The position numbers and the translations under genes were made by a program. Shown in pieces: positions 5,417 through 28,586 of a stretch of DNA of 64,000 nucleotides. Source of the stretch: Kofleriaceae bacterium. GTDB lineage: Bacteria; Myxococcota_A; Polyangia; Haliangiales; Haliangiaceae. How positions within the stretch are numbered: position 1 is the first letter of the stretch; each line of letters starts with the position of its first letter. A model generated the notes under the pieces. That model had not been told where the DNA came from and did not search any database. It was given only the letters and a program-made list of their open reading frames with translations. The stretch spans positions 1 to 64,000 of the forward strand of contig JBKJLC010000180.1 in NCBI GenBank assembly GCA_046597055.1. Reading direction: 5' to 3'.

Positions 5417-5425
5417 TTCAGAATT

Positions 5426-5440
5426 CAATAATCAATTTCA
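5426..5440. promoter_or_regulatory. Fur-box-like site 1
   Basis: The minus strand reads TGAAATT-G-ATTATTG, a 7-1-7 imperfect palindrome in an AT-rich island. Confidence 0.6.
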
Positions 5441-5529
5441 TACCAGAGATCAACTCGTAGCGGCTAAAGGACGGCAACAGGTTCGGAAATAATCAGCCTG
5501 TAATCGTGATGTTGGGCTTGACCTGAATT

Positions 5530-5544
5530 TGATAATAGTTTTCA
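5530..5544. promoter_or_regulatory. Fur-box-like site 2
   Basis: TGATAAT-A-GTTTTCA lies about 25 nt upstream of the TBDR start. Confidence 0.75.
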
Positions 5545-5568
5545 ATTCTCAGAACAGGCCAGGCCGAC

Positions 5569-7527: not shown

Positions 7528-7544
7528 ACCACCAGGAGACCTCC

Positions 7545-8153
7545 ATGTTCCACCTCGACCGATCTCTCGTCCGCGGCGCGCTCGGCGCGCTGCTCGCGCT
7601 GTCCGCCTGTGCCGACGACCTGCAACCCGAGCCCGAGCTCGACGCCGGCCCGGCCGCCTCCAGCAAGGTCGCGACTGTCCGGAACCCGGACGGAACCTAC
7701 ACGACCCGGGTCGACGCCAGCGCCGCCGACGGCTGGACCCGCCTCGACCTCGACTCCGCCGCCGAGGCCACCGCAACGACCACCTGGGACCTCTCGGCCC
7801 AGCGCTTTCACCTCATGCTCAATGGCGGGGTCAGCGGCAGCGCCGGGGTCGAGGTCGCGCCGATCGCCGCGGCCCTGGCCGAGGTGACCACCCCGCCGAC
7901 CTCCGGCTGGATCTCCGATGGTCCCGACGGCGCCGACGACGGCGGCGAGCCCGACTACGCCTTCGAGCAGGGCGACGGCTGGTACGCCTACGACGGCGCG
8001 ACCCACCAGCTCACGCCGCGGCCGATGGTCTGGGTCGTGCGCTCCGACGCCGACCAGGTGATCGCGCTGGTGATCGAGCGCTACTACGATGCAGCCGGCA
8101 GCTCGGGGCACTTCACGCTGCGCTGGAAGCCGCTGGGCGGAGGTGACAGGTGA
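7545..8153 (+). CDS. hmuY: HmuY-family heme-binding lipoprotein
   Basis: Lipobox LSAC, followed by VDAS..W...DL, WDLSAQRFHLMLNGGVSG, GWYAYDGATHQL and YYDAAGSSGHFTLRW, all characteristic of HmuY. RBS AGGAG. Confidence 0.88.
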   Translation: MFHLDRSLVRGALGALLALSACADDLQPEPELDAGPAASSKVATVRNPDGTYTTRVDASAADGWTRLDLDSAAEATATTTWDLSAQRFHLMLNGGVSGSAGVEVAPIAAALAEVTTPPTSGWISDGPDGADDGGEPDYAFEQGDGWYAYDGATHQLTPRPMVWVVRSDADQVIALVIERYYDAAGSSGHFTLRWKPLGGGDR

Positions 8154-10919: not shown

Positions 10920-11729
10920 TTACAGCCCGATCCCGAGGATCAGCCGGACCCACGCGCTGCCGCCGGGATCGCCGACCACGGCGCCACGGCCGAGGCGATC
11001 GAGCCGGGCGTAGGCCCCGAGCGACATCCAGTACTCGCCCTTCTGCATCATCAGGGTCGGGCCCAGATAGTGGCGCGCGGTCCGGGTCTCGTCGTCGTCG
11101 CGGTCCGGGTCGGGGCGGTCGAACCGACCGCGGGCCCAGTACTCGACGCCAACCGTCACCGCCGGGTGGGCCTCATACACCACGCCGACGGTCGGGTTGT
11201 AGAGCAGCTTGATCTCGTCGTCGATCCAGTACCACTCCTGCTCGATCCACAGGTTGGCGATCGCGGTCACCGGCCCGAACCGCCGCTCGAGCAGGAGCTT
11301 CTGCTCGAGCTCGAGCTCGTCGCGCATCTCGGCGATCTCGAGGTAGACGCCGACATCGACCGGCCACGCGCCCGGCTCGGACACCCGGTAGCGTAGCCGC
11401 TGCTTGAGTCCCTGGAAGCGCAGCGCGGCGGCATCGACCGACGCATCCTGGCGGAGCTCGGTGTAGAGGCCGAGCTCCAGCCGGTCGGTGAGCCCGAGCT
11501 CCAGCTCGGTCTGGAGCACGTAGCGCGGGGTGGTGACCGCCTCGCTGGTGCCGTCGGGCAGCTCGCGGGCGACCCGCATGGGGATCGCGTCGACGAAGGA
11601 CTCGAGCTCGAGCTCGCCGGCGGGGATCGTGCGGGTGGCGTACGAGAACGGCAGCACCTTGGGGTTGGCGTGGGCCGCGGCGGGCGCCAGCGCGATCGCG
11701 AGGACGACGAGAGGGGGTACAGCGCGCAT
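10920..11729 (-). CDS. Exported protein, probable small outer-membrane beta-barrel (DUF6662-like, tentative)
   Basis: Signal peptide (AAAHA), alternating hydrophobic strands (ELELGLTDRLELGLY, VDVGVYLEI) and a C-terminal WVRLILGIGL. It is the last gene of the imelysin-HTTM operon. Confidence 0.7.
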   Translation of the reverse strand: MRAVPPLVVLAIALAPAAAHANPKVLPFSYATRTIPAGELELESFVDAIPMRVARELPDGTSEAVTTPRYVLQTELELGLTDRLELGLYTELRQDASVDAAALRFQGLKQRLRYRVSEPGAWPVDVGVYLEIAEMRDELELEQKLLLERRFGPVTAIANLWIEQEWYWIDDEIKLLYNPTVGVVYEAHPAVTVGVEYWARGRFDRPDPDRDDDETRTARHYLGPTLMMQKGEYWMSLGAYARLDRLGRGAVVGDPGGSAWVRLILGIGL

Positions 11730-11730
11730 G

Positions 11731-13098
11731 TCACTCCAGGACGGTCGGATGAGGATGGATCCATGGCCGCGGCGCGAGCGCGTCGCGGGCGGTGGCGAGG
11801 TCGACGGTGGGATCGATCAGGCGCGCGCGCGGCCGCCCGTGCAGCGACACAAAGCAGTCGGCGTACACGCGCGGGGTCGCCACGCCCTGGCCGCGCAGGT
11901 CGGCGGCGGCCGCGTGCGCGAACTGCAGGATCAGATCGGGCTGGGTCGCCATCATCGCGGCCTGCACCGGCGTGTAGTAGCGAGCCGGCGAGATGACCCA
12001 GCGGCGTCCGGTCGTCGGGTCGATCGCGCGCAGCTCGCAGGCGCCGCTCTTCTCGACCAGCATGACCTTCCACGCGAACCGGAAGCCCTGCTCGGTCCAC
12101 AGCCCGTCGCCGGGATAGAGATGATGCCGTAGCGGGATCGCGACCTGCAGCGCGCCGTACAGCGCGAGCACGCTGGTCCACCCCCGCGCCGGTGGCGGGT
12201 GCTCGGCGCCCGTCGCGGGCGCGGCCGGCGCCACCGGCCACCAGCGCGCCACCAGCTGGCGTGGCCAGGACGGCGCGAAGAACACCGTCGCCATCGCGGT
12301 CATCACCCACGGGAACAGCCCGAGCTGGAACATCATCCCGGTGACCAGGTGGAAGCCGATCACGGCGGCATAGGCGACCGCGCGGGTACGCCGCCACGAC
12401 AGCCAGCCGACGATCGTCAGATCGAACCCGGCGGCCAGCCACGACGCGGCCAGCGCGACCCACGGCTCGCCGAACAGGCCGCCGAGCAGCGGGAAGTCGG
12501 GGCGCGCCGCGAGCCAGGTCCGCAGCGGCTCGCCGTCGACGAGCCAGCTCGGCTCGAGCTTGGCGATGCCGCCGAAGACGTAGACGCAGCCGACCTGGAA
12601 GCGAACCAGCCACAGCATCCAGGCCGGCATCGTGGCGACCCGGGTCCGGCCCCGGTGGGCGTCGATCGCGAGGGTCGCGCTGGCCGGCACCACCGCGAAC
12701 ACGCCGCACAGCAGCACCAGCAGGTAGTAGTGATTGAGGTACGCGGTGACGTCGCACGCGTGCGCGTACGCCAGCAGGACGCCGTAGCCGAGCGCGGCGA
12801 GCCGGTGGTGGAAGCCGAGCACGAGCGCGACCGCGCACGCGGCCATCAGCCCGAAGTGGACGTACATGCCCGGGTACGGCCACGGCTCGACCCAGCTCAG
12901 CCCGAGGTAGTGGAAGAAGTGACGCGGCTGATAGAACCCCTCGTCGATCCAGCCGTGCGCGAGGTAGCGCACCACCAGCGCGAGCAGCAGCAGGCCGAAC
13001 AGCCCGCGCGCCACCGCCAGCGAGCTCGGATCGATCGGCGCGAGCGGTCGCCAGAACCCGCGCCGCGCCGGCGGCGCCGCGATCCGGTCAATCCCCAT
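11731..13098 (-). CDS. HTTM-domain / vitamin K-dependent gamma-carboxylase-like membrane protein (copy 1)
   Basis: YLNHYYL, VYVFGGIAKLEPSW, FQLGLFPW, LWTEQGFRFAWKVMLVEK, TQPDLILQFA, VSLHGRP..LIDP. Confidence 0.9.
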   Translation of the reverse strand: MGIDRIAAPPARRGFWRPLAPIDPSSLAVARGLFGLLLLALVVRYLAHGWIDEGFYQPRHFFHYLGLSWVEPWPYPGMYVHFGLMAACAVALVLGFHHRLAALGYGVLLAYAHACDVTAYLNHYYLLVLLCGVFAVVPASATLAIDAHRGRTRVATMPAWMLWLVRFQVGCVYVFGGIAKLEPSWLVDGEPLRTWLAARPDFPLLGGLFGEPWVALAASWLAAGFDLTIVGWLSWRRTRAVAYAAVIGFHLVTGMMFQLGLFPWVMTAMATVFFAPSWPRQLVARWWPVAPAAPATGAEHPPPARGWTSVLALYGALQVAIPLRHHLYPGDGLWTEQGFRFAWKVMLVEKSGACELRAIDPTTGRRWVISPARYYTPVQAAMMATQPDLILQFAHAAAADLRGQGVATPRVYADCFVSLHGRPRARLIDPTVDLATARDALAPRPWIHPHPTVLE

Positions 13099-14143
13099 CG
13101 TTGTCGTTGAACGAGAGGGTGGCCCCGAGCGCCGACACCACCTCGGCCTGGTAGGTCATCTTCAAGGCGCGCGCGGCGACCCACGCCGCGTCGACCGCGG
13201 GCGCCTGCTGCGCGACCGCGTCGGTCAGCGGGCGCGGCATCGCCAGCACCGCGGCGCGCGCGGCGGCCAGCTCGGCCTGCACCCGCTGCTCGACCGCGGG
13301 TCGGTGGTCGGCGATCAGGTCGCCCAGGCGCGGCCCGTCCCCCTCGAGGATCGCGGCGAGGCCGTCATAGGCGGCGACCACGTCGGCGGCGCCGTGGTCG
13401 CTCCACGGCGACTCGACCAGGCCCGGCTGGGGCACGCCGCCGGTCATCGAGCCCAGCGGCTTGCCGAGCCGACCGTCGGCCACGTTCTCGGCGAGGAACA
13501 CCTGGGCGTTGACGACCGCGTCGACCCCGTCCTTGATGGTCGCGAACGGCGCGCCCGGCGCCCCGACCGCGACGAAGCGCCCCGCGTAGCCGTGGTTCCA
13601 CGCGGCCGCCAGCGCGGCGGTGTCGGCCGCGATCGCGTCGAGCACCGCGATCAGGTAGGCCTGGCGCCGCGGCTCGGCCAGCGCGCCCACCACGTCGCCG
13701 CCACCGGGCGCGGCGAACAGCAGGTACTCGGCGATCGCCATGCCCTTCTTGTTGCCGCCCTGGGCGTCGATCAGCGCGCGATCGACCGGCACGGCGTCGG
13801 CGATCAGCGCCTCGACCGCGAGCGGATCGACCGGCCACTGCGCGACCCGGCCCTCGTAGAGGTCGTCGCGCACCGGCCCCAGCCGATATGCCTGGGTGCG
13901 CATCCACGCGACCCGCAGCGCGCGCCAGCGGGCCTGCAGCTCGGTGAGGCCGGGCGGGTCGAGCGCTGGCACCGCCGCGCGCGCCGCGGTGGCCAGCTCG
14001 CCGGCGCGCCCGGCGAGGTCGGCGTAGCCGGGCACGATCACCTCGTCGCCGATCGCGCGCAGCACCTCCTTGCGCGGGCCATCGCCGAGCGGGATCGGGC
14101 TGCACGCGGCCAGCAGCACCGTCACCAGCGCCGCGCGGTTCAC
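13088..14143 (-). CDS. Imelysin-family lipoprotein (IrpA-operon partner)
   Basis: GTG start overlaps the DHOR stop. Lipobox LAAC, KGMAIAEYLLF, RLGKPLG..VESPWS and C-terminal SFNDNDGD. The ORF track extends the frame upstream spuriously. Confidence 0.85.
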   Translation of the reverse strand: MNRAALVTVLLAACSPIPLGDGPRKEVLRAIGDEVIVPGYADLAGRAGELATAARAAVPALDPPGLTELQARWRALRVAWMRTQAYRLGPVRDDLYEGRVAQWPVDPLAVEALIADAVPVDRALIDAQGGNKKGMAIAEYLLFAAPGGGDVVGALAEPRRQAYLIAVLDAIAADTAALAAAWNHGYAGRFVAVGAPGAPFATIKDGVDAVVNAQVFLAENVADGRLGKPLGSMTGGVPQPGLVESPWSDHGAADVVAAYDGLAAILEGDGPRLGDLIADHRPAVEQRVQAELAAARAAVLAMPRPLTDAVAQQAPAVDAAWVAARALKMTYQAEVVSALGATLSFNDNDGD

Positions 14144-15537
14144 AGCGACTCCAGGAAGGCGAGCAGCTCGGCCCGCTCGCTCGCGGTCATCGCGAGGAAC
14201 GCGCGCTGGGCGGCGGAGGCCTCGCCGCCGTGCCAGAGGATCGCCTCGGCGAGATCGCGCGCGCGGCCGTCGTGCAGGAACAGCGTGTGGCCGTTGACGG
14301 TCTCGACCAGGCCGATGCCCCACAGCGGCGGGGTCCGCCACTCGTCGCCGGTGGCCTGGTGCTCGGGGCGACCATCGGCGAGCTCGGGGCCGAGATCGTG
14401 GAGCAGCAGATCGGTGTAAGGGCGGATCTCCACACCGGCGAGCTCGGGCACCCGCGCGATCACCCCGCCCTCGCCGGTGATCCAGGTCGGCCGGTGACAG
14501 CCAGCGCAGCCGGCGGCGGCGAACCGCGCCTTGCCGGCCAGCACGTCGGGCTCGCGCACGTGGCGCCGCCCGGGCGCGGCCAGGGTCTGACCGTACACGG
14601 TGACGTCGTCGAGCTTGTCGTCGTCGAGCTCGGCCGGACCGGCGCCCTCGCCGCCGGGCGCGCTTGCGCACGCGATCTGGGCCGGCGGACAATCTTGCTG
14701 CGGAAACAGGCTCGAGGTGATGCCGATGTCTCCGACGAACGCGCCGGCGCTCTGCTGGCGGACGCTCGGCTGGCCGGCCTTCCAGCCGAACCGCCCGATC
14801 ACGGCCCTGGCCTGACCGACATCCCAGACCCGGTTGACGCGACCGCTGAGGCCATCGCCGTCGGCGTCGGCGGGATCCTCGCCCGCGAGCAGGTCGGCGT
14901 CGTCGATGCTCTCGAGCAGCCCGAGCCCGGCCACGACCGGTGCCACCCGCGCCGAGGTCAGCGTGCCCGGCTCCATCGCGCCGAAGGCGAGGCCCTCGAA
15001 GGTCAAGCGCGGCCGCCGCAGCGTGTACGGCGTGCCGTCGTCGTAGCGGCCGGCGACCTCGTCCCATCCGATCACGGCGGTGCCCTCGCCGGGCACGCCG
15101 AGGATCCCGCGCGGGTTGAGCTGGCCGCCATAGCTGGTCTCACCACGCGGCCCGCCATGCAGGTCGGTGCCGGGCACCGACAGCCGGATCAGCATCGACT
15201 CCATCGGCGCGCCATCGACGGGCGGCCGACCCCGGCCGTCGAGGAAGTGACAGCTCGAGCACGACGCGGCGTTGAAGGTGGGCCCGAGGCCGTCGAGCCC
15301 CTCGGTCGACGACGGCGCGGTCACCCAGTTGCGATTGAACAGCGAGTTGCCGACGAAGAACGGGTCCTTGCGCACGCCGTCGAGGACCGGGAACGGGCGC
15401 GAGAACGCGGTGCGGGTGCTGTCGAACGCGGTGCCGCCGACCCCGCCGGCGTACTCCTCGCCGGCCTCGTAGCCGGCGGCGTCGTCGCTGCACCCGGCCG
15501 CCATCAGCCCGATCGCGATCAGCGCGCGGCGCCTCAC
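14140..15537 (-). CDS. Di-heme oxidoreductase (DHOR/DUF1111) lipoprotein
   Basis: DGLGPTFNAASCSSCH, GRFGWKAG, CAGCH, PYTDLLLHDLG, WRTPPLWGIG and LHDGRAR..EAILWHGGE. Confidence 0.93.
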   Translation of the reverse strand: MRRRALIAIGLMAAGCSDDAAGYEAGEEYAGGVGGTAFDSTRTAFSRPFPVLDGVRKDPFFVGNSLFNRNWVTAPSSTEGLDGLGPTFNAASCSSCHFLDGRGRPPVDGAPMESMLIRLSVPGTDLHGGPRGETSYGGQLNPRGILGVPGEGTAVIGWDEVAGRYDDGTPYTLRRPRLTFEGLAFGAMEPGTLTSARVAPVVAGLGLLESIDDADLLAGEDPADADGDGLSGRVNRVWDVGQARAVIGRFGWKAGQPSVRQQSAGAFVGDIGITSSLFPQQDCPPAQIACASAPGGEGAGPAELDDDKLDDVTVYGQTLAAPGRRHVREPDVLAGKARFAAAGCAGCHRPTWITGEGGVIARVPELAGVEIRPYTDLLLHDLGPELADGRPEHQATGDEWRTPPLWGIGLVETVNGHTLFLHDGRARDLAEAILWHGGEASAAQRAFLAMTASERAELLAFLESL

Positions 15538-16697
15538 AGCTCGGTCGACACCGGCACGTCGAGGGCCTCCGCGACCTCGACGACCGTGTCGCCGATCGCC
15601 TGGACCGCGCGGATCGCGGCCAGGACCTGGGTCCGCCCCGCATCGGCATCCGCCCCGAGGATCGCCTGATCGAACGGACCCGGGATCGCCGCCATCGCGC
15701 GGGTGGCCGCGGCCAGCTGATCAGCCATCCGCGTCGCCAGCTCCGGATCGCGCGCGGTGACCAGCTCGTGCAGCGCGGGCCCGGGCCCGGGGCCAGCGCC
15801 CCGCCCGAACCAGACGGCCTCGATCCCGGCGAGGTTGCCGGTCAGATCGTCGAGCGTGGTGTCGGAGAAGCACGAGTGCTCGTCCTCCTGGTCCTTGTTC
15901 TCGTACGCGGTCAGCATGCGCTCGCCCGACAGCTCGGACGCCGACAGCGTGCCGAGGCCGGTGAGGATGCGGGTCAGCGACTCGACCGGCGCGCCGGTGA
16001 ACGTGGCGCGGTAGTCGCCGCTGGCGCTCCACCGCGCCGCGACGTGATCGAGATCGGCGACCAGCAGATCCGACACCGTGGTCAGGTACCCGCGGCGACG
16101 CGCCTGGTTGGCGGCGGTGCCCCCATCGACGAAGTCGGTATGCGGGCGCGCGCCCGGGCCGGCGGTCGACTGGTCCTGCCCCCACAGCAAGAACTCGATG
16201 GCATGGAAGCCGACCGCGACGTTGGACTCGCCGCCGACGAAGTTGATCGAGGTCAGGGTGGCGGCGTCGAGCGTCGGGAACCCGGTCGCATCGTTGATGA
16301 CGCCGGCGCTCGGGTTGCCGTCGACGTAGTCGACGTAGGCCTCGTCCATCGGCCACGCGTTGATGCGCGGCTCGCGCTCGTCGTCGGGATCGTCGATCGG
16401 CCCGCCGTAGAACCGCAGCGCCTCGGTCTGGCGGTAGGGCGCCCGGGCGGCGATCCAGGCGGCGCGCGCCGCGGCCAGCGTGGTCGGCGACGGCGCGGCG
16501 ACGAAGGCGTCGATCGCGGCATCGAGCGCGTGGCCCTGGACCGCGACGTCGGCATACAGCGCCGCCGCGAGGTCGGCGTGATGGTCGATCATCGGCTGCG
16601 CCCGGACGGCGAGCCCGTCCTCGGTGTCGCCGCCGCATGCGGCCACGAGGAGCCCGGCGCTGGCGGTGAGCGCCGTCACAAGCGGTCGGTACGTCAT
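15534..16697 (-). CDS. Imelysin / iron-regulated protein A lipoprotein
   Basis: Lipobox VAAC, RINAWPMDEAYVDY, GFHAIEFLLWGQD, ELSGERM and QEDEHSCFSD. Confidence 0.93.
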   Translation of the reverse strand: MTYRPLVTALTASAGLLVAACGGDTEDGLAVRAQPMIDHHADLAAALYADVAVQGHALDAAIDAFVAAPSPTTLAAARAAWIAARAPYRQTEALRFYGGPIDDPDDEREPRINAWPMDEAYVDYVDGNPSAGVINDATGFPTLDAATLTSINFVGGESNVAVGFHAIEFLLWGQDQSTAGPGARPHTDFVDGGTAANQARRRGYLTTVSDLLVADLDHVAARWSASGDYRATFTGAPVESLTRILTGLGTLSASELSGERMLTAYENKDQEDEHSCFSDTTLDDLTGNLAGIEAVWFGRGAGPGPGPALHELVTARDPELATRMADQLAAATRAMAAIPGPFDQAILGADADAGRTQVLAAIRAVQAIGDTVVEVAEALDVPVSTEL

Positions 16698-16717
16698 CCG
16701 CCAGACGTATCAGAAAT

Positions 16718-16732
16718 CGAAAACGAATGTCA
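16718..16732. promoter_or_regulatory. Fur-box-like site 3
   Basis: CGAAAAC-G-AATGTCA followed by AACTCA, about 20 nt upstream of the imelysin start. Confidence 0.6.
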
Positions 16733-16867
16733 AACTCAAGATCGTCGAGGCCGCGTCAGCCTCGATGCCCGGGCGCTCACATCGAGACGGGTGTGATCAC
16801 GCCGTCGATGTTGACGCCGCGGGCGAGGTCGCCGCCCCGCCGTGTGTGGGCCGGCGAGGCCGCGCGG

Positions 16868-17884
16868 CTACGGCGCGTGCTCGGCGAGCGAGACCACCGC
16901 CGGTCGCTCGAAGTCCGTGCGCCAGTGGATCGTCAAGCGACGACCGTCGGACTCGACGGCGAGGCCGCCGAGCTCGCCGTCCGGCACGAGCTCCCAGAGC
17001 GCGACCTCGCAGAACGCCAGCCACTCGTCCGCGCTACGGCCGGTCGGAGGCGGACTCGGCTGGCAGAACCAGTCGAGCGACACGTCGGCGTCGCGCAGGC
17101 GCTGCGGCACCGAATCGAGCACCTCGTGACGCGCGCGGGTCTCGCTCGTGAGGTAGCCGCGCAGCGCGACCGCGGCGTCGAGGTAGCCGAGGAGCACGGG
17201 CAGCTTCCACTGCTCGAGCGCCGTTCGCTTGTCGGCGAGCCGCTCGTCCGACAGGAGGCCATGCCACTCGAGCGCGCCCAGCACGGCCTTGCGCTCGCCG
17301 ACGAGCGCGGCCTGCGGTGCGCCGGTCGTGGCGGCCGCCGCGGCGGCGTCGAGCGCGGCCGCGCGCCGCTCGAGAGCCACCATGTCGGCGCGATCGGTCG
17401 CACTGGCAGCTCGACCGGTCGGGGTCTGTGTGAACAGCTCGGCGGGCGACGCCGGCGACGTCGGCGCCGCGGCAGCGGGCGTCGCGGGGCGCGGCCACCG
17501 CGCCGCCTCGCGCCGCAGCTCGGTGAGCGCGTTCAGGAGCGCGAGCAGGGTCGCGCGTGGCACCACGAAGCTCGGCTGGGTCATCACCGACGTGGCGAGG
17601 ACGAGGTCGTCACCGGGCTCGTCACCGCCGAGCTCGTTCCAGAGCGCGCGCGACGCGTCGGACGCCTCGGCCCGGGACACGCGCATCACGCCGAAACCGT
17701 TGCGGTGAACGCTGTCCCCGCGGGTGAGCGCATCGACGAGCTCGGGCAGCTCGCCGTCGAGCCAGACGTTCACGACCCAGGCCAGCGGCTCGAACGCGCC
17801 GCGCGCGTCGAGCGTGGGGCCGGTCCAGCCGTCGACGATCGGGAAGCGCACGCCGTCCACGGTCAGGAAGGGAGGCACGATCAT
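16868..17884 (-). CDS. Hypothetical protein (338 aa), candidate immunity protein
   Basis: The frame reads as coding from MIVPPFLTVDG and starts 7 nt after the stop of a toxin-like tip. No known motif was recognised. Confidence 0.65.
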   Translation of the reverse strand: MIVPPFLTVDGVRFPIVDGWTGPTLDARGAFEPLAWVVNVWLDGELPELVDALTRGDSVHRNGFGVMRVSRAEASDASRALWNELGGDEPGDDLVLATSVMTQPSFVVPRATLLALLNALTELRREAARWPRPATPAAAAPTSPASPAELFTQTPTGRAASATDRADMVALERRAAALDAAAAAATTGAPQAALVGERKAVLGALEWHGLLSDERLADKRTALEQWKLPVLLGYLDAAVALRGYLTSETRARHEVLDSVPQRLRDADVSLDWFCQPSPPPTGRSADEWLAFCEVALWELVPDGELGGLAVESDGRRLTIHWRTDFERPAVVSLAEHAP

Positions 17885-17891
17885 GGGATGC

Positions 17892-20800
17892 TCATAGCTT
17901 GGGGTAGATCGTGTTGAGCCTCCAGTGCGGAGGCGGTCCGGCGGTGAACAGGTAGCCGCCCTCGTAGGCGATGCCGGCGGCGTTGCGCGGCGTCGTGAAG
18001 CGCGGCTGCGTCGCGGCGAGGCCGGTCGGCGGGGGACCAGCCGTGAAGTTCGCGCTGCGCCAGGCCTCCCACGCCAGCTCGGCGTCGCGCACGTACGGCT
18101 GCAGCGCATCGGCGGTGGTCTTCGGCACGCCGGCGACATCCCACAGCGCCTGCTCCGCGGGCCCGAAGCTCGAGCCGCCCGGTCGCCGCGCATCGCCGAC
18201 CGGTGAGCGCCATCGTCGTGACGACGCGGATCAACAGCATCCGCTTCTGATCGGCGGTGAGCGTCGGGTCGCCGACGATGCTCGAGATCGCCTGGATGCT
18301 CTCGACGCTGACCAGCACGGCGGCGACGCCGGAGCCGACGAAGTTGGTCCACAGCACGAACCGGGACGCCTGCCCCATGACGTTCACGGCCTGTGCCCCG
18401 GCCGCCAGCCCGCGGATCGCCGCGCCGCCGGCGACGAAGCTCGTGACGATGCCGACGATGTCGAGCGCGACGCCGGTCGGGCTGAGCTCGGCGTGCTGCA
18501 GCCGCTCGGCGAGGCTGAGCGCGCCGGCGGCGACACCAGCCGCCGCGGAACCGATGAGCAGCAGCGCCACCGCGACCGACCCGCCGCCGGTGAACGGCGC
18601 CGCCACCACCGCCGCGCCGAGGAGGACCAGCGAGGCCAGGCCGAAGCGGCTCGGCCAGCTGTCGAGCTGGGTCTCGCCGGTGGTCACGATCTCGTGCTCG
18701 GCCGTGGGGATCGCGGCGCCGTTCGGGCCGAGGTGGTTGTTCGCCGGCACCCGGAGCCGGATCACGCCTCGCAGATGGTGGTTGCGCGCGCGGAACTCGG
18801 CGAGCGCGAGGTCGAAGGTCGCGCCGTGGAACTCGAGCTGATGATGCTCGGGATCGAGGCCCGGCGTGAGGTCGACGATCGTGATGCCGTGCGCCGACGG
18901 TCCGGCGAACAGCTGCAGCCGGTTAGTGGTCGCCGCCTCGACGGCGACGTGCACGGCCGTGAGCGGCGTGCGGCTCTCCGGGCGCAACCGGCCGGCGAGG
19001 CCCTCGGCCCGCGCCATGTAGGCCTCGAGCTTCTCGAGGTCGCGGCGCTCGGCATCGTTGAGGACCGTCTGGAGGTAGCGCGCCTCGCTGAGGCGCTGGC
19101 CGCTGGCGTCGAGGACGCGGCAGACGACGACGAAGACGTTGTGCTCGGTCGATGGCATCTGGGCCGTGACGCCGGTGCCGAGATCGAAGTAGCCGCCTTG
19201 GCCGTCGAGGCTGACCGTGCGCAGGTTGCCGAACCCCGGCGAGCGGTCGCGGTGGTAGGGCAGTGTCTGCGGGTTGAGCGCCTTCACGTACCAGTGATAG
19301 GTGCTCGTCGGCGGGGCCGGCGAGGTCGCCGTCCGCGCGACCGAGAAAGAAATGTCCGGTCCGCGATCGGTGACCGACGCGGGGTTTGGGGAGGTGGTGT
19401 CGATGCGGTAGTCGCCGGAGGCCTGCTGGCTCGGCCCGGGCGGCCGGAGGAGTGCGCGCTGGATCTCGAGCGGGCTGCGCATCTCCTCGTACGAGTTGTC
19501 GGCGACACCCGGCAGCAGCGACCGGGCGTGTGCGCCGGCATCGACCGCGGTGAAGGTCTGCTCGATCGGAAACACCTGGCGATCGCCGCCGAGCGCGCCG
19601 CTCTGGACGATCACGCTGCTCCTCATCCGGTAGGTGCCAGGCTCGGTGATCGGCAGCCGCACCATCTCGACCGACGGCGACCAGTCGATGCGGCCCGACG
19701 GATACGTCAGCTGCCACTCGCCGGCGAACGTGACCTGACTCCCCGTCTGGACCGGGCGCCGAAGGGTGAACCGGAGGTTCATCCCGACGACCGCCGGCTG
19801 CCCGGGCGCCAGCGCCGGCGACATGTCGATGCCGACCCGGTGCCGGCGCGCGAGGTCGGCCGCCTGCTGCTCGGTGACCGTCGGCGGCGGATCGACGCAG
19901 CGTGACAGCCGCATGCCCGAGGATATGGCGGGTCGAGCACGGCCGGTCAGCGCGCCGGCGACGCCCTTCACGCCGCCGTAGAGCCGGGCGAGCACCGACG
20001 TCGCCGCCTCGTCGGCGTCGTCCTCGTGCGCGGGCACGGGGTCGGTCGCGAGCGGGCGGTGCTGCGCGGCGGCCGGCGCGCCCCGCTGCTGGACCACGTG
20101 CGCGAGCTCGTGCGCGAGCAGCGCGTCACCGGCGACCGTGTCGGGCTGGTAGGCGCCGGGCGCGAATGCGATCTGGTTACCGACCGTGACCGCGACGGCG
20201 CCGTGCTCGCCGGCCAGCGCGGCGGCGCGCGCGTCGGTATGGACCCGCACGTCGCTCAGCGACTCGCCGTAGGTGTCGGCGGCCGCCTCGACGACCGCCG
20301 CCGGTGCCGGCGCGCCGTCGCCGAGCTGCCGGGTCACGTCGGCCGGCGTGATCGCGAGGCCCGCGGGTCGCGGGGCCATCGCGAGCGCCTCCGCCGGCAG
20401 GCGGCCGCTGTCGCGCCAGGCCCGCACGCCATGGCGGACGCGTTCGACGACGAACGGCACCAGCCCCGCGGCGGCGTCGAGCCCGCGCGTGCCGCCGCCC
20501 GCGTAGTGGCGGAGCGCGCGCTCGAGGTGCTCGGCGTCGCGCTGCTGGTAGTAGGCGACGATGTGTGCGAGGTACGGGCAGCCCTCGGTCGACCGCTCGG
20601 GCGCCAGCTCCGCGTCGGCAGCCTCGGTGATCGCGGCGTGGAGCACCGCGACGAAGTCGCCACGGCGCAGCTGGCCAGGCCGGAGCTCGTCGTCGGGAGC
20701 GGCGTCGTCGACGATCAGCCGCCGGCTCGGCGGGAGGCGCTCCAGTCGCCGGGTCGCGACCGTGCGCCCGGGTGCGACCGCCGGCGGCGCGTTCGACGGC

Positions 20801-20952
20801 GCGTCGAGCTCTTGCAGGGCGATCGCGAGCGCGTCGAGCCAGGGCCAGCCGACGACCATGAGCTCGCCCACGCGGGCGTCGAGATCGTCTTCCTGCTCGT
20901 CGCGACGACCGTCGCCTCGGTGCTGGTACAGGGGGCCCACCATACGCACCAT
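17892..20952 (-). pseudogene. DUF4157 (eCIS-core) protein / polymorphic toxin with a frame break at about 18200
   Basis: DVRVHTD..AVTVGNQIAF..LLAHELAHVVQQ, followed by a long hydrophobic Gly/Ala helical region (AAPFTGGGS). After MALTG the frame turns Arg-rich, while another frame gives a plausible C-terminal domain ending WRLNTIYPKL*. Confidence 0.7.
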
Positions 20953-21156
20953 GACGGTATCGGCTGCCGGGTGGCAAAGGCTGGAAAGCGCCGCGCCGAC
21001 GTGTGCGCGTCAGTGCTCGAAAGGACACGGCGCGGGGACCGGCGCGGCGCGGCGCGGACCGTCCGAGCACATGTCGCCGGCGGCGGCGCGGTTCGATCGC
21101 GAGCGAAACATGAAGACGCCCCTGCTGGACTAGGCGCGCCGACCAGCGCGGCCAGT

Positions 21157-21987
21157 TTAGCGCAGGTAGGCGTGGCAGCGCGGGTCGCCGTCGACGACGT
21201 CGTCACCGGTCGCGGCTCCGCGCGGGAAGCGGGTCCGGTCGCACAGCGCGGCGAGCAGATCGAGGATCTCCTGCGCCATCGCGCGGCCGTCGGGACCGAC
21301 CACCTGCCGCCCCATCTCCTCACCGGGCTGACCGTTGAGGATCTTGGACCAGTCCTCGTAGGCCTTCTGGCGGGCGTGGGTGCCGAGCGTGTACTCGCCG
21401 TCGTCGATCGGAATCTCGGTGCCGTCGGCGCCGTGGCACTCGCTGCAGCGGTCGGCGTACAGCGCGGCGCCGCGCGCCGGATCGCCGCCGGGCCGCAGGA
21501 CGTAGTTGCCCGGCGTGCCCTCGGACAGATCCCAGATCCAGTCGGGCCGGGCCAGGCGACCCTCGCGCACGTCCACGATGTAGGTCGCGATCGCGCGCAG
21601 CGCGCCGTCGTCGAGCGCCGGGCCCAGCGCCGGCTGCGCGCCGTCACCGTCGCGCAGGATCGCCGTGATCTGCTCGACCGACTCGGTGCTCACCAGCCAG
21701 TTGCGCTCGAGCACGAACTTCTTGGCCTGGTAGCGCGGACCGTAGATGCCGGCGGCGCCGCGCAGGTCCCAGCCGTAGAGGTTCTTGAGCCGGTAGTCGT
21801 GACCGGCATCGCTCGCCGCCAGCGCGTCGGGCCGGGCCGCCACGTCGGCGCGCCACTGATCGAACGCGCGGCCACCGCGCTCGTTCACCGGGACCTCGGC
21901 CGGCGCCGGCGTGGTGGTGCTCGAGGAGGACGAGCCGCCACACGCAGCGACGAGCGCGACGAGAAGGGTACTGCGAACAAGATGCAT
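21157..21987 (-). CDS. c-type cytochrome lipoprotein
   Basis: Lipobox VAAC, GDPARGAALY..CSECHGADG and a candidate axial Met (NGQPGEEM). Confidence 0.85.
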   Translation of the reverse strand: MHLVRSTLLVALVAACGGSSSSSTTTPAPAEVPVNERGGRAFDQWRADVAARPDALAASDAGHDYRLKNLYGWDLRGAAGIYGPRYQAKKFVLERNWLVSTESVEQITAILRDGDGAQPALGPALDDGALRAIATYIVDVREGRLARPDWIWDLSEGTPGNYVLRPGGDPARGAALYADRCSECHGADGTEIPIDDGEYTLGTHARQKAYEDWSKILNGQPGEEMGRQVVGPDGRAMAQEILDLLAALCDRTRFPRGAATGDDVVDGDPRCHAYLR

Positions 21988-22085
21988 GGACGTCCTATAG
22001 CCGAACGTGCCGGTCAGTTCGAGCACCGGCGACGCGATCCGCGCCTGCCATGCTGGCTGACCGGGACGGGACGGTGCACCACGCG

Positions 22086-23576
22086 TCACGGCATCGGCAG
22101 GATGACGGCGTACGCGTCGTCGTTCACCGTGTCGGTCTGCATCGCGGCCGGACCGCCGCCCTTGTAGCCGACCAGCAGCGCCTGGTTGCCCGAGACCGCG
22201 GCGCCCCAGAACTGGTCGTTGCCGTTGGCGCCGAGCGGGAACGTGTGCAGCCCGTCACCGAAGGCGGTGTCGAGCCGGCCGGTGGCGTCGAGCACCGCCA
22301 GCACGGCGTCCTGCACCGGCATGTCGTTCGGGCCGGTCGACCCGAACAGGAGGGTCTTGCCGCCGGGCAGCGCCAGCGCGCCACGGCAGTTGTCGCCGAC
22401 CATCGCGCCCGAGGCATCGATCAGCACGGCGCCACGCGCGGCGCCGCCCCAGGTCAGGTCACGCGCGCCGGTGGTGGCGTCGAAGCGCATGGACACGTAG
22501 TCGTTCAGGGTGCTGGCGCCGCTGTCGCGACCGTAGCCGCCGGTGACGAGCTGGTTGCCGTGGACCGCGACGCCGTAGATCTCGGTCTGCACTTGCAACA
22601 CGGCGCTGTGGAAGAAGCCACCCGCGAACGCGGTGTCGGGGACGCCCGCCGGGGTCAGCTTGAACAGCACCGGCTGGACCGTGGAGCCCACGCCCTCCGA
22701 GTTGGCGTAGCCGCTGCCGATCACCGAGCCGTCGGCGAGGACCTGGATGCCGCGCGGCGTGGCGTTCGACCGCTGGATGTCGAGCAGGTACTTGCCGCCG
22801 GTGCCATAGCTGCTGTCGACGCCGCCGTCGGCGGTCAGGCGGACCACCGCGAAGTCGGTGTCGGTTCGCGGCGCACCGGGGGCCTCCGGGTCCACGCCGC
22901 GCTGGACCGCATAGACGTGGATGAGCCCGGCCGCGCCGATCGCGACGCCGCGGGCGGCATCGGTGCTGACGGGGGCGGTCGTGCTGGTGGCGGTGCTGAG
23001 GTCGAGCAGGCGGACGCCGCCGACGCCGAAGCCGAGGTCAGGGGTCCCGTCGGTGTTCAGGCGGGCCACGGCGACGTCGCGATCGGCCGCGGTGACCGGG
23101 TTGGCGACGGTGGCCGACACGACAATCTTGCCACTCGGCTGGACGCCGATGCCGACCTCGCCGGCGCCGCCCTTGAAGTCGAGGGTGGTCGCCGCGATGC
23201 CGTCGCCGCTGAACGTCGGGTCGAGCGCGCCGGCCGCGGTCAGCTTGACCACCGTGACCAGGCGCGGGCCAGCGATCGTCGCACCGACGAAGCCGGCGGC
23301 GTAGAACCCACCACCAGGCGCGGCGACCGCCGACTGGAGCTGGTCGGGACCGGCCGCCGACAGCGGCACCGCGACCGGCGTGGGCGGCACGAACGGGGAC
23401 GGCGGCGCGTCGGTCGGGGCGTCGGTCGGGGGCACCGCGGCGTCGACGGTGGTGACCACGCCAGCGTCGGTCTGAACGTCTGGCGACTTCTCGTCGTCAC
23501 CACAGCCCGAGAGCGAGAGGGTCGACAGCGCGGCGCCGAGGAGGAAGGGGAGCGGAAGGGTTTGCAGCGTACGCAT
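22086..23576 (-). CDS. Delta-60 repeat (DUF5122-like) beta-propeller lipoprotein
   Basis: AAGGAG RBS, lipobox LSGC, and repeated KLTAAGALDPTFSGDG / RLNTDGTPDLGFGVGG / RLTADGGVDSSYGTGG / QPSGKIVV units. Confidence 0.87.
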   Translation of the reverse strand: MRTLQTLPLPFLLGAALSTLSLSGCGDDEKSPDVQTDAGVVTTVDAAVPPTDAPTDAPPSPFVPPTPVAVPLSAAGPDQLQSAVAAPGGGFYAAGFVGATIAGPRLVTVVKLTAAGALDPTFSGDGIAATTLDFKGGAGEVGIGVQPSGKIVVSATVANPVTAADRDVAVARLNTDGTPDLGFGVGGVRLLDLSTATSTTAPVSTDAARGVAIGAAGLIHVYAVQRGVDPEAPGAPRTDTDFAVVRLTADGGVDSSYGTGGKYLLDIQRSNATPRGIQVLADGSVIGSGYANSEGVGSTVQPVLFKLTPAGVPDTAFAGGFFHSAVLQVQTEIYGVAVHGNQLVTGGYGRDSGASTLNDYVSMRFDATTGARDLTWGGAARGAVLIDASGAMVGDNCRGALALPGGKTLLFGSTGPNDMPVQDAVLAVLDATGRLDTAFGDGLHTFPLGANGNDQFWGAAVSGNQALLVGYKGGGPAAMQTDTVNDDAYAVILPMP

Positions 23577-23602
23577 CAGCGGCTCCTTGAGACAATTGAA
23601 TG

Positions 23603-23617
23603 TGAAAACCGTAATCA
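23603..23617. promoter_or_regulatory. Fur-box-like site 4
   Basis: TGAAAAC-C-GTAATCA in an AT-rich patch upstream of the Delta-60 gene. Confidence 0.7.
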
Positions 23618-23659
23618 ATGAGAACGCGCGCCGCAGGCGCAGCGCGTGGGGGACCGAGC

Positions 23660-25962
<2,303 letters not shown>

Positions 25963-25966
<4 letters not shown>

Positions 25967-27354
25967 GGGCGGGCGTGGAGGTGGATGGGAGGGGTGGTGG
26001 GCGCGGGCGTGACCCACCCGCGGGGACCGAGGTCGACGATGCCGGCGAGATCGACCGCGGGATCGATCAACGCCACCGGCGGCCGGCCGTTGAGCGAGAC
26101 CCGGGTGTCGGCGTGGACCGCGACCTCGCCGTGGCCGGCGGCGCGCAGATCCGCCGCGATCCGGCGCGCCAGCTGCGCGATCAGGTCGGGCTGCCCGGCC
26201 ATCTCGCGCTCCTGGCGTGCGGTGAGGTACCGGCGGGGCGGGACCTCGAGCCGGCGACCGTCCGAAAACCGGACGACGAAGGTGACGCTGCCGTGCTTCT
26301 CGCGGACCATCACCTGCCAGGCGAACCGGGCGCCGTCCTCGTTCCACAGCAGGCTGCCGGGGTAGACGTGGTGGCGCAGGGGGAGGAGCAGCTGGAGCAC
26401 GACGTGGAGGGCGAGGACCCCGCCGACCGCGCGCGACACCACCGCGGGCGCGGTCGCCGGCGGTGGCACCGAGGCCGGCCGCGGGCGGCCGATCGTCGCG
26501 AGCAGGCGGCGCGGCCAGCCCGGCCCGAAGAAGATCAGGGCCGCGCTGGTCATGATCAGCGGGAACATCCCGATGTTGAAGAAGTAGCCGGTCGCGGCGT
26601 GGAAGCCGATCAGCACGCCAAAGGCGGCGCGCCGGGTCCGGCCCCACGACAGCCACACCACGATGGTGGTGTCGAACAGGAACCCGGCCCAGCTCATCGC
26701 GTGCGCGACCCAGCGCTCGTCGAGCCACGGCCCGATCAGCGGGGTGTCGGTGCGCGCCGACAGCCACACGTTGATCGGCTGCGCGTGGATCAGCCAGTCG
26801 GGCTGGGCCTTGGCCAGCCCCGCGAACACGTACACCGCCCCGACCTGGACCCGGAGCAGCCACACCGTCCAGGCCGGCACCACCTCGAGCGCGATCGCGG
26901 GCCGACGCCAGGCATCGACCGACCAGGCCCGGTGCGCGGGCAAGACCGCGAGCAGCCCGCCGAGCAGCACGACCAGATAGTGATGGTTGAGGTAGTTGGT
27001 GACGTCGATCAGCTGCGTGTACGCGAACCCGAGCGTGAACAGCGGCGTCACCACCCGGTGCCAGGCGCCGGCCGCGATCGCGAGCGCCAGCCCGGCCAGC
27101 ACGCCGTAGTGGATGTACATGCCGGTGACCGACCACGGCTCGACCCAGGCGAACCCTGGAAACGCGAAGAAGAACCGGGGCGCGCCGTACATCGGCTCGA
27201 TCCAGCCGGTCGCCAGGAACCGCACGATCCCGCCGAACATCACCAGCCCGAAGATGATCCGGAACGCCGCCAGCGAGGCGACATCGACCGGTCGCGCCGC
27301 GCGCGCGACCACGCGCCGCGACAGCGTCCAGGCGCGGGGGACCGGGATGAACAT
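25963..27354 (-). CDS. HTTM-domain / vitamin K-dependent gamma-carboxylase-like membrane protein (copy 2)
   Basis: YLNHHYL, VYVFAGLAKAQPDW, FNIGMFP, LWNEDGARFAWQVMVREK, QPDLIAQLA and VSLNGRP. Confidence 0.9.
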
Positions 27355-28535
27355 CAGTCGACGTCTCCGGCCACGTCGTCGGGGATGTCGAGCCCGAGCA
27401 CGGTCAGGAACTGGCTCTTGAGGTCGTCGGTGAACGCCTTGGTCGCGGCGTGGACCGCGACGATCCGCGCGCGATCAGCGGTGAGCGCGGCGATGAAGCC
27501 GTCGGGCAAGGCGTCGGCCGCGACGATCGCGGCGTCGAGCGAGCCGGTCATCCGGTCCGCCAGCTCGGTCGCGCCGACCGCGCGCAGGTAGTCGTCGAAG
27601 CCGGGGCCGTCGACCGCGGCGGTGCCGGTGAACGCGGCGCGCAGCGCCCGCAGGTTGATCCGGATCGCGAACGACGACCGGTCGGCGAAGCGGTGCTCGA
27701 CCTCGCGCAGGCACGGCGCGTCGACCGTGCCGCACGCGTTCATCGTGAGGCCCGAGGCCTCACCGAGCTTCATGTCCTTCACGATCTCGTCGACGTAGAA
27801 GAGGCCGTCGGACACCATGTTGAGCGCCTCGCGCTCGCTGACGATCGACGAGCCAGCGGTGCCAGCCAGGGCCAGCTGGTCGCGGTAGCCACCGCCGCCC
27901 GGGCGCCACGCGGTCGCGAGCGCCGCGGCCTGGGTCGCGACGTCACGGGCGATCGACGCGGCGAGCGCGCACCGGGCCTTCGGCAGGTCGGCGCCGAGCG
28001 CGTCCCAGCCGTTCGGCGCCAGCGGGCAGCTGTGGCTGGTCGCGGTGAAGAAGAGCAGGTACTCGACCGCAGCCAGCGAGCGCGCATTGTCGAACCGGGT
28101 CGTCACGTCGTACGAGGCCGGCGTGTTCCACCGGACCAGCACGTCGTTGTCGATCGAGCACGGGCCCACGTTGGGCCAGGCGTAGATGCGGTTGCGCAGG
28201 GTGGCGTCGGCCGCGACCGCCGGCCCCACCAGCACCGCATCGGCGGACTCCCAGCCGTCGATCGCGGTCGCCCACGCGGCCTGGGCCGCCACCTCGGTCG
28301 CGACCGGATCACCCGCGCCGCCCAGCGCGGCGCAGCGGGCGTCGATCGCGGTGACCAGCCCCACGGTGTCGGTCGCGAACCGGTCGTAGGTCGGGATCAG
28401 CAGGTGGTCCGCGAGGTGCGCGAGCACCGCCCGGCGATCGAACCCGACCTCGGCCGCGTCGGTCACGAACCTGCCGTCACCGCTGCACCCGGCGAGGGCC
28501 AGGGTGGCGGCGAGGGCGGTCAGCGTGCGAGCCAT
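27354..28535 (-). CDS. Imelysin-family lipoprotein (third copy)
   Basis: Lipobox LAGC, RIYAWP, RSLAAVEYLLF, VKDMKLG and acidic C-terminus AGDVD. Confidence 0.85.
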   Translation of the reverse strand: MARTLTALAATLALAGCSGDGRFVTDAAEVGFDRRAVLAHLADHLLIPTYDRFATDTVGLVTAIDARCAALGGAGDPVATEVAAQAAWATAIDGWESADAVLVGPAVAADATLRNRIYAWPNVGPCSIDNDVLVRWNTPASYDVTTRFDNARSLAAVEYLLFFTATSHSCPLAPNGWDALGADLPKARCALAASIARDVATQAAALATAWRPGGGGYRDQLALAGTAGSSIVSEREALNMVSDGLFYVDEIVKDMKLGEASGLTMNACGTVDAPCLREVEHRFADRSSFAIRINLRALRAAFTGTAAVDGPGFDDYLRAVGATELADRMTGSLDAAIVAADALPDGFIAALTADRARIVAVHAATKAFTDDLKSQFLTVLGLDIPDDVAGDVD

Positions 28536-28557
28536 ACCCTCACGTAACACGACCTAT

Positions 28558-28586
28558 GTGAGTTTGAAAAGCATTATCAAACTCAC
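28558..28586. promoter_or_regulatory. Fur-box-like site 5 inside a perfect 10-bp inverted repeat
   Basis: GTGAGTTTGA-aaagcatta-TCAAACTCAC, with core TGAAAAG-C-ATTATCA at 28565-28579. Confidence 0.8.

Follow-up and report, generated by a model that had tools for sequence, protein, structure and literature searches.

The 64,000-nucleotide window analysed here (positions 1 to 64,000 of contig JBKJLC010000180.1 from a Kofleriaceae bacterium, ~73% GC, with Kofleriaceae/Myxococcales metagenome-assembled genomes at no more than 82% identity as its nearest kin) carries two minus-strand operons in which a membrane enzyme resembling human gamma-glutamyl carboxylase (GGCX) is encoded directly behind an imelysin lipoprotein ending in Asp-x-Asp (DxD). 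We propose, with a probability of roughly 0.4, that these HTTM enzymes use menaquinol and O2 to carboxylate the imelysin tail on an aspartate rather than a glutamate, yielding a tethered metal ligand. That the imelysin is a physical partner or substrate of HTTM is quite probable in itself and, this granted, carboxylation stands at somewhat better than even odds. Operon A has the order ImelA-DHOR-ImelB-HTTM1-barrel and operon B the order ImelC-HTTM2-receptor, followed by a DUF5122 gene. The imelysin and HTTM features are the following:

13088..14143, minus strand: ImelB, a His-less imelysin lipoprotein of the IPPA type with a GTG start, 351 amino acids, ending in D349-G-D351 (PF09375)
13091..13099, minus strand: codons of the ImelB Asp-Gly-Asp tail, enclosing the HTTM1 start codon (sequence)
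11731..13098, minus strand: HTTM1, a GGCX-like membrane enzyme of 455 amino acids, with N122/H123/K180 equivalent to GGCX N159/H160/K218 (PF05090 and PF22777, alignment)
27354..28550, minus strand: ImelC, a His-less imelysin lipoprotein of the IPPA type, likely start ATG 28535 (PF09375; invariant C22, D396 and D398; model)
27357..27365, minus strand: codons for the Asp-x-Asp end of ImelC, predicted as the target (sequence, alignment, co-fold)
25963..27354, minus strand: HTTM2, a GGCX-like membrane enzyme of 463 amino acids (PF05090 and PF22777, fold, co-fold)

The preliminary description of this DNA had placed an HTTM/VKGC-like gene over the stop of an imelysin gene in two operons, and both overlaps were borne out: the HTTM1 ATG (13098) gives an 11-nt overlap with ImelB, whose stop ends at 13088, and the HTTM2 ATG shares 1 nt with the ImelC stop at 27354 (TGATG). 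The two enzymes, 47% identical to each other, score 241/148 and 280/132 bits against the PF05090 HTTM and PF22777 VKGC lumenal domain models, both above the curated cut-off of 27.7. HTTM2 aligns to human GGCX residues 49–490 (E 2e-36) and HTTM1 to residues 57–504. The NHxYL and G-x-A-K segments described earlier for both copies are present (YLNHYY/YLNHHY and G-x-A-K) and align with GGCX N159/H160 and K218. The fold comparison, which covers HTTM2, likewise agrees with the expected superposition on GGCX: the AlphaFold2 model (predicted local distance difference test score, pLDDT, 96) retrieved GGCX structures only, with TMq up to 0.83 (9bvk) and TMt of 0.57–0.60, the next match having an E of 0.1.

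Residue conservation was assessed in 114 HTTM-imelysin pairs, after three duplicate loci had been dropped and partial imelysins left out, using equivalences taken from the HTTM2-GGCX alignment (HTTM2 N123/H124/K182/D228/F264 correspond to GGCX N159/H160/K218/D263/F299) and residue roles from PMC12589487 and PMC12647623. In GGCX numbering, the catalytic set K218, D263 and W223 is present in 114/114 pairs each, as are V210, F286, F299, N159 and H160, with F294 in 112. Six of the eight naphthoquinol-pocket positions (V210, A214, G259, F286, F294, F299, M401 and N290) are kept or nearly so, the two that differ being M401 (Val in 113 of the 114 pairs) and N290. Within the Glu-binding set N159/H160/Y395/N158/R436, invariance is limited to N159 and H160. 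The two-lobed propeptide-binding domain of GGCX lacks its second lobe here, the alignments ending at GGCX 490–504, and the coupling residue K217 is replaced. The GGCX 374–418 segment, a reported requirement for carboxylation, is present, and G341, R343, E352 and K353 (HTTM2 numbering) are strongly kept as clade-specific residues. As judged from these alignments, the enzyme retains its quinol/O2 half and has a remodelled substrate half; we regard HTTM as probably working like GGCX yet standing outside GGCX proper.

The imelysin adjacent to HTTM is of the His-less IPPA/PA4372 type, a subfamily defined in section 11 of PMC3143127. Both ImelB and ImelC have an imelysin domain with GxxxxE in which the His is lost, ImelC also lacking the Gly. 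Among 186 complete imelysin open reading frames (ORFs) from the loci analysed, a few loci having been fetched twice, 139 are His-less with a DxD end, 45 are His-containing without it and 2 are exceptions. ImelC ends in D396-V-D398 (398-residue numbering), both aspartates are invariant in the imelysin alignment (A2), and the intervening residue is mostly Gly or Asn across the tails. In the model of ImelC alone, only the N-terminus has lower confidence than the tail, which scores 69 against 95 just before it and lacks order in the crystal of IPPA (PMC3143127). Structure 3pf0 of IPPA also ends in DxD, as do imelysins paired with a hydroxylase or with DUF1513 (below), and the tail was accordingly rejected as a hallmark of HTTM partners. 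The preliminary description had envisaged gamma-carboxyglutamate (Gla) ligands on the imelysins; this proved unsupported. Asp is the likelier target because the invariant acids are the two C-terminal Asp residues and the Glu-holding residues Y395, R436 and N158 are mostly or wholly replaced, and Gla is further disfavoured by the rarity of Glu within four residues ahead of the DxD motif (19/114 tails).

Co-folding HTTM2 (residues 10–455) with ImelC (30–398) gave a score of 0.79, against 0.00 for the best of 3 controls; the mark is reached by 116/157 solved complexes and 2/215 mismatched pairs, a calibration that is rough here because custom alignments were used. The runs share at least 89% of contacts, with a partner pLDDT of at least 87. 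The adjacent imelysin thus passed the co-folding check proposed for it, and the result supports a predicted binding of HTTM2 to ImelC. The interface list of HTTM2 comprises residues 122–124 (GGCX 158–160), 259–264 (294–299), 348–349 (401–402) and 352–356, together with 367–386 and 418–426 of the lumenal domain, and that of ImelC comprises 267–270, 374–380, 382–392 and 395–398; from these per-chain lists, the ImelC tail is predicted to lie in the N159/H160 pocket. No solved imelysin-GGCX complex was found among the structures searched.

Linkage was counted in samples of increasing breadth. In close relatives an imelysin adjoins HTTM in 20/21 loci, the remaining one being cut by a contig end. 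A phylum search with PF22777, which is independent of similarity to the query, found 50 places in 35/151 genomes; excluding the two of the window and one below the cut-off leaves 47 loci, in 36 of which an imelysin is directly adjacent. The other 11 comprise 2 cut on the imelysin side, 2 fragments and 7 full-length copies with another signature, in which, for the most part, N290 is retained and positions 395 and 402 hold His and Lys/Arg. In metagenomes, 575 loci were confirmed and the best 80 by similarity (32–77% GC) were analysed; the imelysin is adjacent in 71 of these, and 7 of the other 9 are cut near the gene. The linkage is therefore conserved in other genomes, although these figures are counts and not a test, since kin are not independent; a mirror-tree correlation of the pairs (rho 0.69) was likewise not used as evidence because shared ancestry alone gives it. 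The occurrence of two pairs in one genome is also recurrent, as seven others (G041, G064, G069, G080, G085, G095 and G110) carry one pair per operon type. Around the 36 linked phylum loci, 21 flanks have a receptor without DHOR, 12 DHOR without a receptor, 2 both and 1 neither. An outer-membrane protein had been described after each HTTM gene and the receptor named beside the imelysins as a possible partner; such a protein does follow in both operons here, but neither receptor nor barrel could be retained as a constant partner (a barrel homologue occurs in 1/68 loci, and the 12 loci with DHOR alone have no receptor in the flanks fetched), and it is the His-less imelysin that is constant.

Outside the phylum, 7/201 genomes of a Chloroflexota sample matched, and 5/6 full-length HTTM copies lie next to a DxD imelysin, in 4 cases in tail-to-tail orientation. 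For Bacteroidota the evidence comes from low-GC contigs, a table in one paper and three plasmid records: Chondrinema litorale has the order imelysin-DHOR-imelysin-HTTM-receptor, Persicobacter has imelysin-DHOR-imelysin-HTTM, Bernardetia has a stand-alone HTTM of the other signature, and four low-GC contigs that were checked have DUF4856 upstream in addition. No relative was found in viral contigs, and a look-up of RNA runs listed no match. These distributions bear on an alternative in which HTTM is epoxidase-like or vestigial, shares regulation in an iron operon and is not functionally tied to the imelysin. High-GC operons often have short gene overlaps, and the linkage counts come from kin and were partly selected by query similarity, both of which would suit such an account. 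Against it, adjacency is found in at least three phyla and outlasts changes of order (HTTM ahead of the imelysin; convergent in Chloroflexota), linkage tracks a distinct clade, the 7 full-length unlinked copies bearing another signature, and the HTTM2-ImelC co-fold passed, so that we hold shared regulation alone to be very improbable.

Several arrangements depart from the usual ones. Rearranged forms occur at L020 and L186–L189, including Chloroflexota HTTM genes convergent with an imelysin-DHOR-imelysin operon, whose tails have three extra residues, and a single HTTM lies between two divergent imelysin operons at L013:602-5897. At L098:6730-10974 (G117), an unlinked, more GGCX-like HTTM stands right after a Mur-ligase, CapC and a third gene, a poly-gamma-glutamate-type operon that makes it a candidate for polyglutamate carboxylation. 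Other unlinked HTTM genes lie behind TamB, a TSP3/FG-GAP surface protein and a DCC1-like thiol oxidoreductase (L086, L087 and L232).

An imelysin search of the same 151 genomes with alignment A2, for which 38 extra imelysin loci were fetched, showed that the position next to the DxD imelysin can be held by another enzyme. Beside 60 DxD imelysins (58 from the phylum sample and 2 from the window), the slot is occupied by HTTM in 38 cases and by a PF04116 fatty-acid-hydroxylase with full His boxes in 18, with neither in 4 (3 at contig ends). The 18 hydroxylases comprise 12 fused to the N-terminus of the receptor, 2 fused to that of the imelysin (recognised only with a profile built for this analysis) and 4 that stand alone. 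The hydroxylase is absent from the flanks of all HTTM-linked loci, and a plasmid search for it gave no match. In a quick IQ-TREE search of the imelysins, the slot label changes 7 times, 4–5 of these changes being forced by well supported branches, all in the ImelC clade. In Sulfitobacter and a Pseudomonas plasmid the slot is held by DUF1513 and the imelysin still ends in DGD; DUF1513 is reported as cofit with its operon (bioRxiv 10.1101/072470). PF07433 (DUF1513) had no match in the genome studied here, a search that gave none in control genomes either. An occupant of the slot thus seems to be required, and this favours a genuine functional step, yet the occupants share no carboxylase chemistry.

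The exchange of enzymes invites a reading in which the same pair performs other chemistry, the tail being hydroxylated, epimerised, cyclised or cleaved by the base or oxidant derived from quinol and O2. HTTM, the hydroxylase and perhaps DUF1513 could then all yield an identical or similar product, for example beta-hydroxy-Asp, a classic siderophore ligand. The repeated swap with a full-His-box enzyme, the altered Glu pocket with its K217 to Ala change, the HTTM proteins of linaridin maturation, whose mechanism is unclear (PMC9927463), and the giant-virus VKGC-like domains beside or fused to sterol desaturases (PMC13486548) all point this way. The invariance of F299 (CO2 pocket), N159 and H160 and the presence of the 374–418 segment point back to carboxylation, and we consider the other chemistries unlikely. 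A broader formulation, in which the DxD tail is armed as a tethered siderophore by any of three unrelated enzymes (GGCX-like carboxylase, di-iron hydroxylase and DUF1513) swapped into the slot, is tentative and, to our minds, doubtful.

A further possibility is that HTTM acts on a lipid or small molecule, such as a metal-binding lipid or chelator, with the imelysin a co-regulated binder of the product and the co-fold mirroring likeness to GGCX-peptide complexes. FA_hydroxylase members act on lipids (weak OlsE matches fell below the cut-off), the substrate of MloH is a small-molecule intermediate, and L172 retains HTTM and receptor without an imelysin. The best co-fold contacts, however, join folded surfaces without counterpart among the solved structures found, the module has no biosynthetic genes, and in G050 and G066 the hydroxylase is kept beside ImelC despite an HTTM beside ImelB, as expected of one enzyme per imelysin; action on a lipid or small molecule is distinctly improbable.

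The fused hydroxylase-receptor ORFs are at L195, L198, L200, L202, L203, L205, L207, L210–L213 and L224, and the fused hydroxylase-imelysin lipoprotein ORFs at L194 and L196. In alignment, the domains are separated by a hydrophobic, signal-like stretch, which suggests that the fusions may be polyproteins cleaved after export. Atlas holds a 77-member cluster with the hydroxylase-receptor architecture. At L201, an HTTM of the unlinked type lies 4.5 kb from the hydroxylase locus. Two loci (L214:2602-5451 and L223:6302-9106) have His-containing imelysins followed by a protein of 935–950 amino acids with HZS_alpha, PD40 and cytochrome c matches.

Besides the imelysin-HTTM pairs, the two operons contain the following features:

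28560..28584, minus strand: Fur-like palindromic box at the head of operon B (motif match, strong)
23660..25966, minus strand: TonB-dependent receptor with a 4-nt overlap with the HTTM2 stop (Pfam)
23602..23618, minus strand: extra copy of the Fur-like motif, ahead of the DUF5122 gene (motif match)
22086..23576, minus strand: DUF5122/delta-60 repeat beta-propeller lipoprotein, often accompanying operon B (Pfam, loci of relatives)
16713..16737, minus strand: Fur-like box at the head of operon A (motif match, weak alone)
15534..16697, minus strand: ImelA, an imelysin lipoprotein with canonical GxHxxE and without the DxD tail (PF09375; LruB model below cut-off)
14140..15537, minus strand: DHOR, a di-haem lipoprotein of the DUF1111 type (PF06537)
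10920..11729, minus strand: small outer-membrane barrel-like protein of 269 amino acids, DUF6662-like (Atlas features)

The barrel-like protein has no Pfam match, and the nearest NCBIfam models of the operon B receptor are siderophore/FecA receptors, all below cut-off. Neither operon contains an inner-membrane permease. Elsewhere the genome has no further imelysin and two more HTTM-only genes, which are unrelated.

A Fur-like box had been described at the head of each operon. That of operon B is strong, with 14/19 matches to the classical Fur consensus, and ranks within the top 8 strand-hits across the 8.4-Mb genome; that of operon A has only 12/19, a level reached by 1044 matches genome-wide, and is weak alone, but it shares with operon B a 17-bp motif that recurs at two further window sites. 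Within the window this motif occurs 5 times where 0.03 occurrences are expected, an enrichment that is partly circular because the motif was drawn from these very sites. Genome-wide it has 7 sites, 4 of them in the window and each upstream of a putative iron gene, compared with 2 sites for a reversed control pattern, and it lies upstream of an imelysin in 6/11 relatives checked. A sigma-70 promoter scan found 0, and a terminator scan gave chance level only. In Riemerella anatipestifer, consecutive genes annotated as TonB-dependent receptor, vitamin K-dependent gamma-carboxylase, imelysin and hypothetical protein, matched here by annotation name and not by sequence, are up by ratios of 2.1–3.1 under iron restriction and 1.4–1.9 in a fur mutant (PMC5609570). 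They are also up 2.7–3.1 under restriction in the fur mutant (PMC5609570), so that Fur is not the whole story there. A term search of a second Riemerella iron transcriptome (PMC5429918) returned neither "carboxylase" nor "imelysin" and neither confirms nor contradicts this. Iron regulation is suggested by iron repression of the same-named Riemerella genes and, in the organism studied here, by the motif. The proposal of an uncharacterised step tied to iron uptake is supported by the linkage, the quinol site, the co-fold and the Riemerella iron repression.

The expression "one iron island", used in the preliminary description, is loose: the two iron operons are there, but unrelated genes (16868–20952) split them and relatives have them far apart. 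The intervening genes include a 314-amino-acid unannotated ORF (16868–17812) and a 1023-amino-acid eCIS_core (DUF4157) protein (17881–20952, minus strand). A lipoprotein with one CxxCH haem motif lies directly behind the DUF5122 gene (21157–21987, minus strand). A likely haem-uptake operon spans 5421–10117, with a TonB-dependent receptor (5569–7527), HmuY (7545–8153) and an exported CbiX-domain protein with a His-rich linker (8150–10117); the 17-bp motif occurs at 5529 and, in weaker form, at 5421. The small barrel gene also has a paralogue outside the window (G000:C302:2476-3118), with a fifth motif site upstream of it.

In the proposed mechanism each HTTM would be the dedicated maturation enzyme of the neighbouring His-less imelysin. 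The operons would be switched on under iron shortage, as the motif and the homologue data suggest, and the inner-membrane enzyme, whose active site would be periplasmic if the GGCX topology holds, would meet the newly exported imelysin lipoprotein. The lumenal domain is predicted to grip the last imelysin helix, in place of the missing GGCX propeptide clamp, and the flexible Asp-x-Asp tail to enter the N159/H160 pocket. K218 and D263 would activate menaquinol with O2, and the resulting base would deprotonate a tail Asp, at the alpha carbon as in MloH or at the beta carbon, for addition of CO2. The malonate-type product would be a stronger Fe3+ ligand on the lipoprotein, working in iron capture together with either the receptor or the pair of DHOR and imelysin. 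In the genome, menD scores above cut-off and VKOR has one match, and the futalosine gene PF02621 gave none.

The same contacts could serve a tail that undergoes no covalent change and instead brings Fe3+ to HTTM, whose menaquinol site would reduce or release the iron. Such a hand-over would explain why the tail is kept whichever gene occupies the slot, and the hydroxylase that takes the slot in place of HTTM is an iron protein too; DxDGD-type tails may resemble metal-binding loops, neither operon has an inner-membrane permease, and the co-fold suits docking as well as modification. An O2-activating set (K218, D263 and W223) and a carboxylate pocket that are both invariant would be superfluous for simple electron transfer, however, and HTTM shows no sign of a haem or of a metal-ligand set. 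A lipoprotein with Ser after the lipidated Cys is usually sorted to the outer membrane, and such sorting, if the rule holds in this lineage, would suit passing, not lasting, contact. Iron hand-over is thus, like the other chemistries on the tail, unlikely.

Several findings weigh against carboxylation of the imelysin tail. Parts of the GGCX machinery are altered: K217 is Ala in 114/114 pairs, N290 is Thr/Val/Ile in 114/114, N158 is Leu in 113/114, the Y395 column is Met in 50, Phe in 28 and Tyr in 27 of 114 (Ala in HTTM2 and Phe in HTTM1), and R436 is Arg in only 6/114, with Glu/Met in the window HTTMs, the R436 column being taken from a gapped sequence alignment. A Leptospira GGCX homologue without K217 is reported to be uncoupled from substrate. 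Rishavy et al. in 2005 reportedly described the Leptospira VKGC homologue as an epoxidase without carboxylase activity. The 25 best contact pairs of the co-fold place the lumenal domain against ImelC 268–270 and 375–380, not the tail against the pocket, and GGCX-peptide structures exist that may have steered the model to an acidic tail. Three extra residues are present in 6/114 tails; L172 and L184, which have this HTTM type without an imelysin, are true exceptions, and L208 has an imelysin with neither enzyme. The DxD tail also occurs where the slot is held by the di-iron hydroxylase (18 loci) or DUF1513 and, as these are not carboxylases, it needs no carboxylation in those lineages; the His boxes of the hydroxylase are expected to face the cytoplasm. 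Lastly, the one VKOR match in the genome is unlinked to the operons.

Earlier work connects imelysins with iron uptake but gives no mechanism, and the module provides a concrete, testable candidate substrate protein for a widespread, largely unexplained bacterial enzyme family. With one enzyme, one partner and two residues named, the enzyme and imelysin questions can be tested together, and the hydroxylase swap is an independent handle on the function of the slot. If the broader formulation with three exchangeable slot enzymes is true, this HTTM clade would be a bacterial vitamin-K-dependent protein carboxylase acting on aspartate and a living model of GGCX folded-substrate recognition predating the propeptide system.

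The families involved are known, and the HTTM-imelysin adjacency is already visible in one Riemerella transcriptome table (PMC5609570); no functional study of the pairing was found in the literature, subscription journals and supplements lying outside coverage. Operon A follows the imelysin-DHOR-IPPA imelysin order of the IcmP/IrpA operon (PA4370-PA4373, VC1264-1267), for which Fur regulation and a His-less second imelysin are described (PMC3143127), whose four genes are cofit (bioRxiv 10.1101/072470) and which shares the DGD tail. It differs in its fourth gene, which is DUF1513 there and HTTM in operon A, and operon B differs further in having neither DHOR nor a His-containing imelysin. GGCX residues are broadly conserved in bacteria (PMC12647623), and a 2026 preprint describes a different complex, HTTM-DUF5819. 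The DUF5819-HTTM pairs, linaridin LinG/CrdG and giant-virus VKGC-like epoxidase-desaturases share the HTTM core with its catalytic Lys; they differ in being split or truncated and in their peptide or lipid contexts, with no imelysin link in the passages available. The Leptospira VKGC homologue is similar as a bacterial GGCX homologue without K217. Human GGCX shares the fold over residues ~49–500 and K218, D263, W223, V210, F286, F294, F299, N159 and H160. In contrast, HTTM has ~460 amino acids, without the second propeptide-binding lobe or the Arch region, has changed K217, N290, N158, Y395 (mostly Met/Phe) and R436, and is predicted to act on a C-terminal Asp motif of a lipoprotein where GGCX acts on Glu that follows a propeptide. 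In the open literature surveyed, the only bacterial GGCX homologue with an assigned reaction is the malonomycin enzyme MloH (Law et al. 2018), which is reported to alpha-carboxylate an aspartyl residue; likened here by description and not by sequence, it differs in that its substrate is a polyketide-peptide intermediate of an antibiotic cluster, and resembles the proposed HTTM in being a bacterial VKGC homologue with Asp carboxylation.

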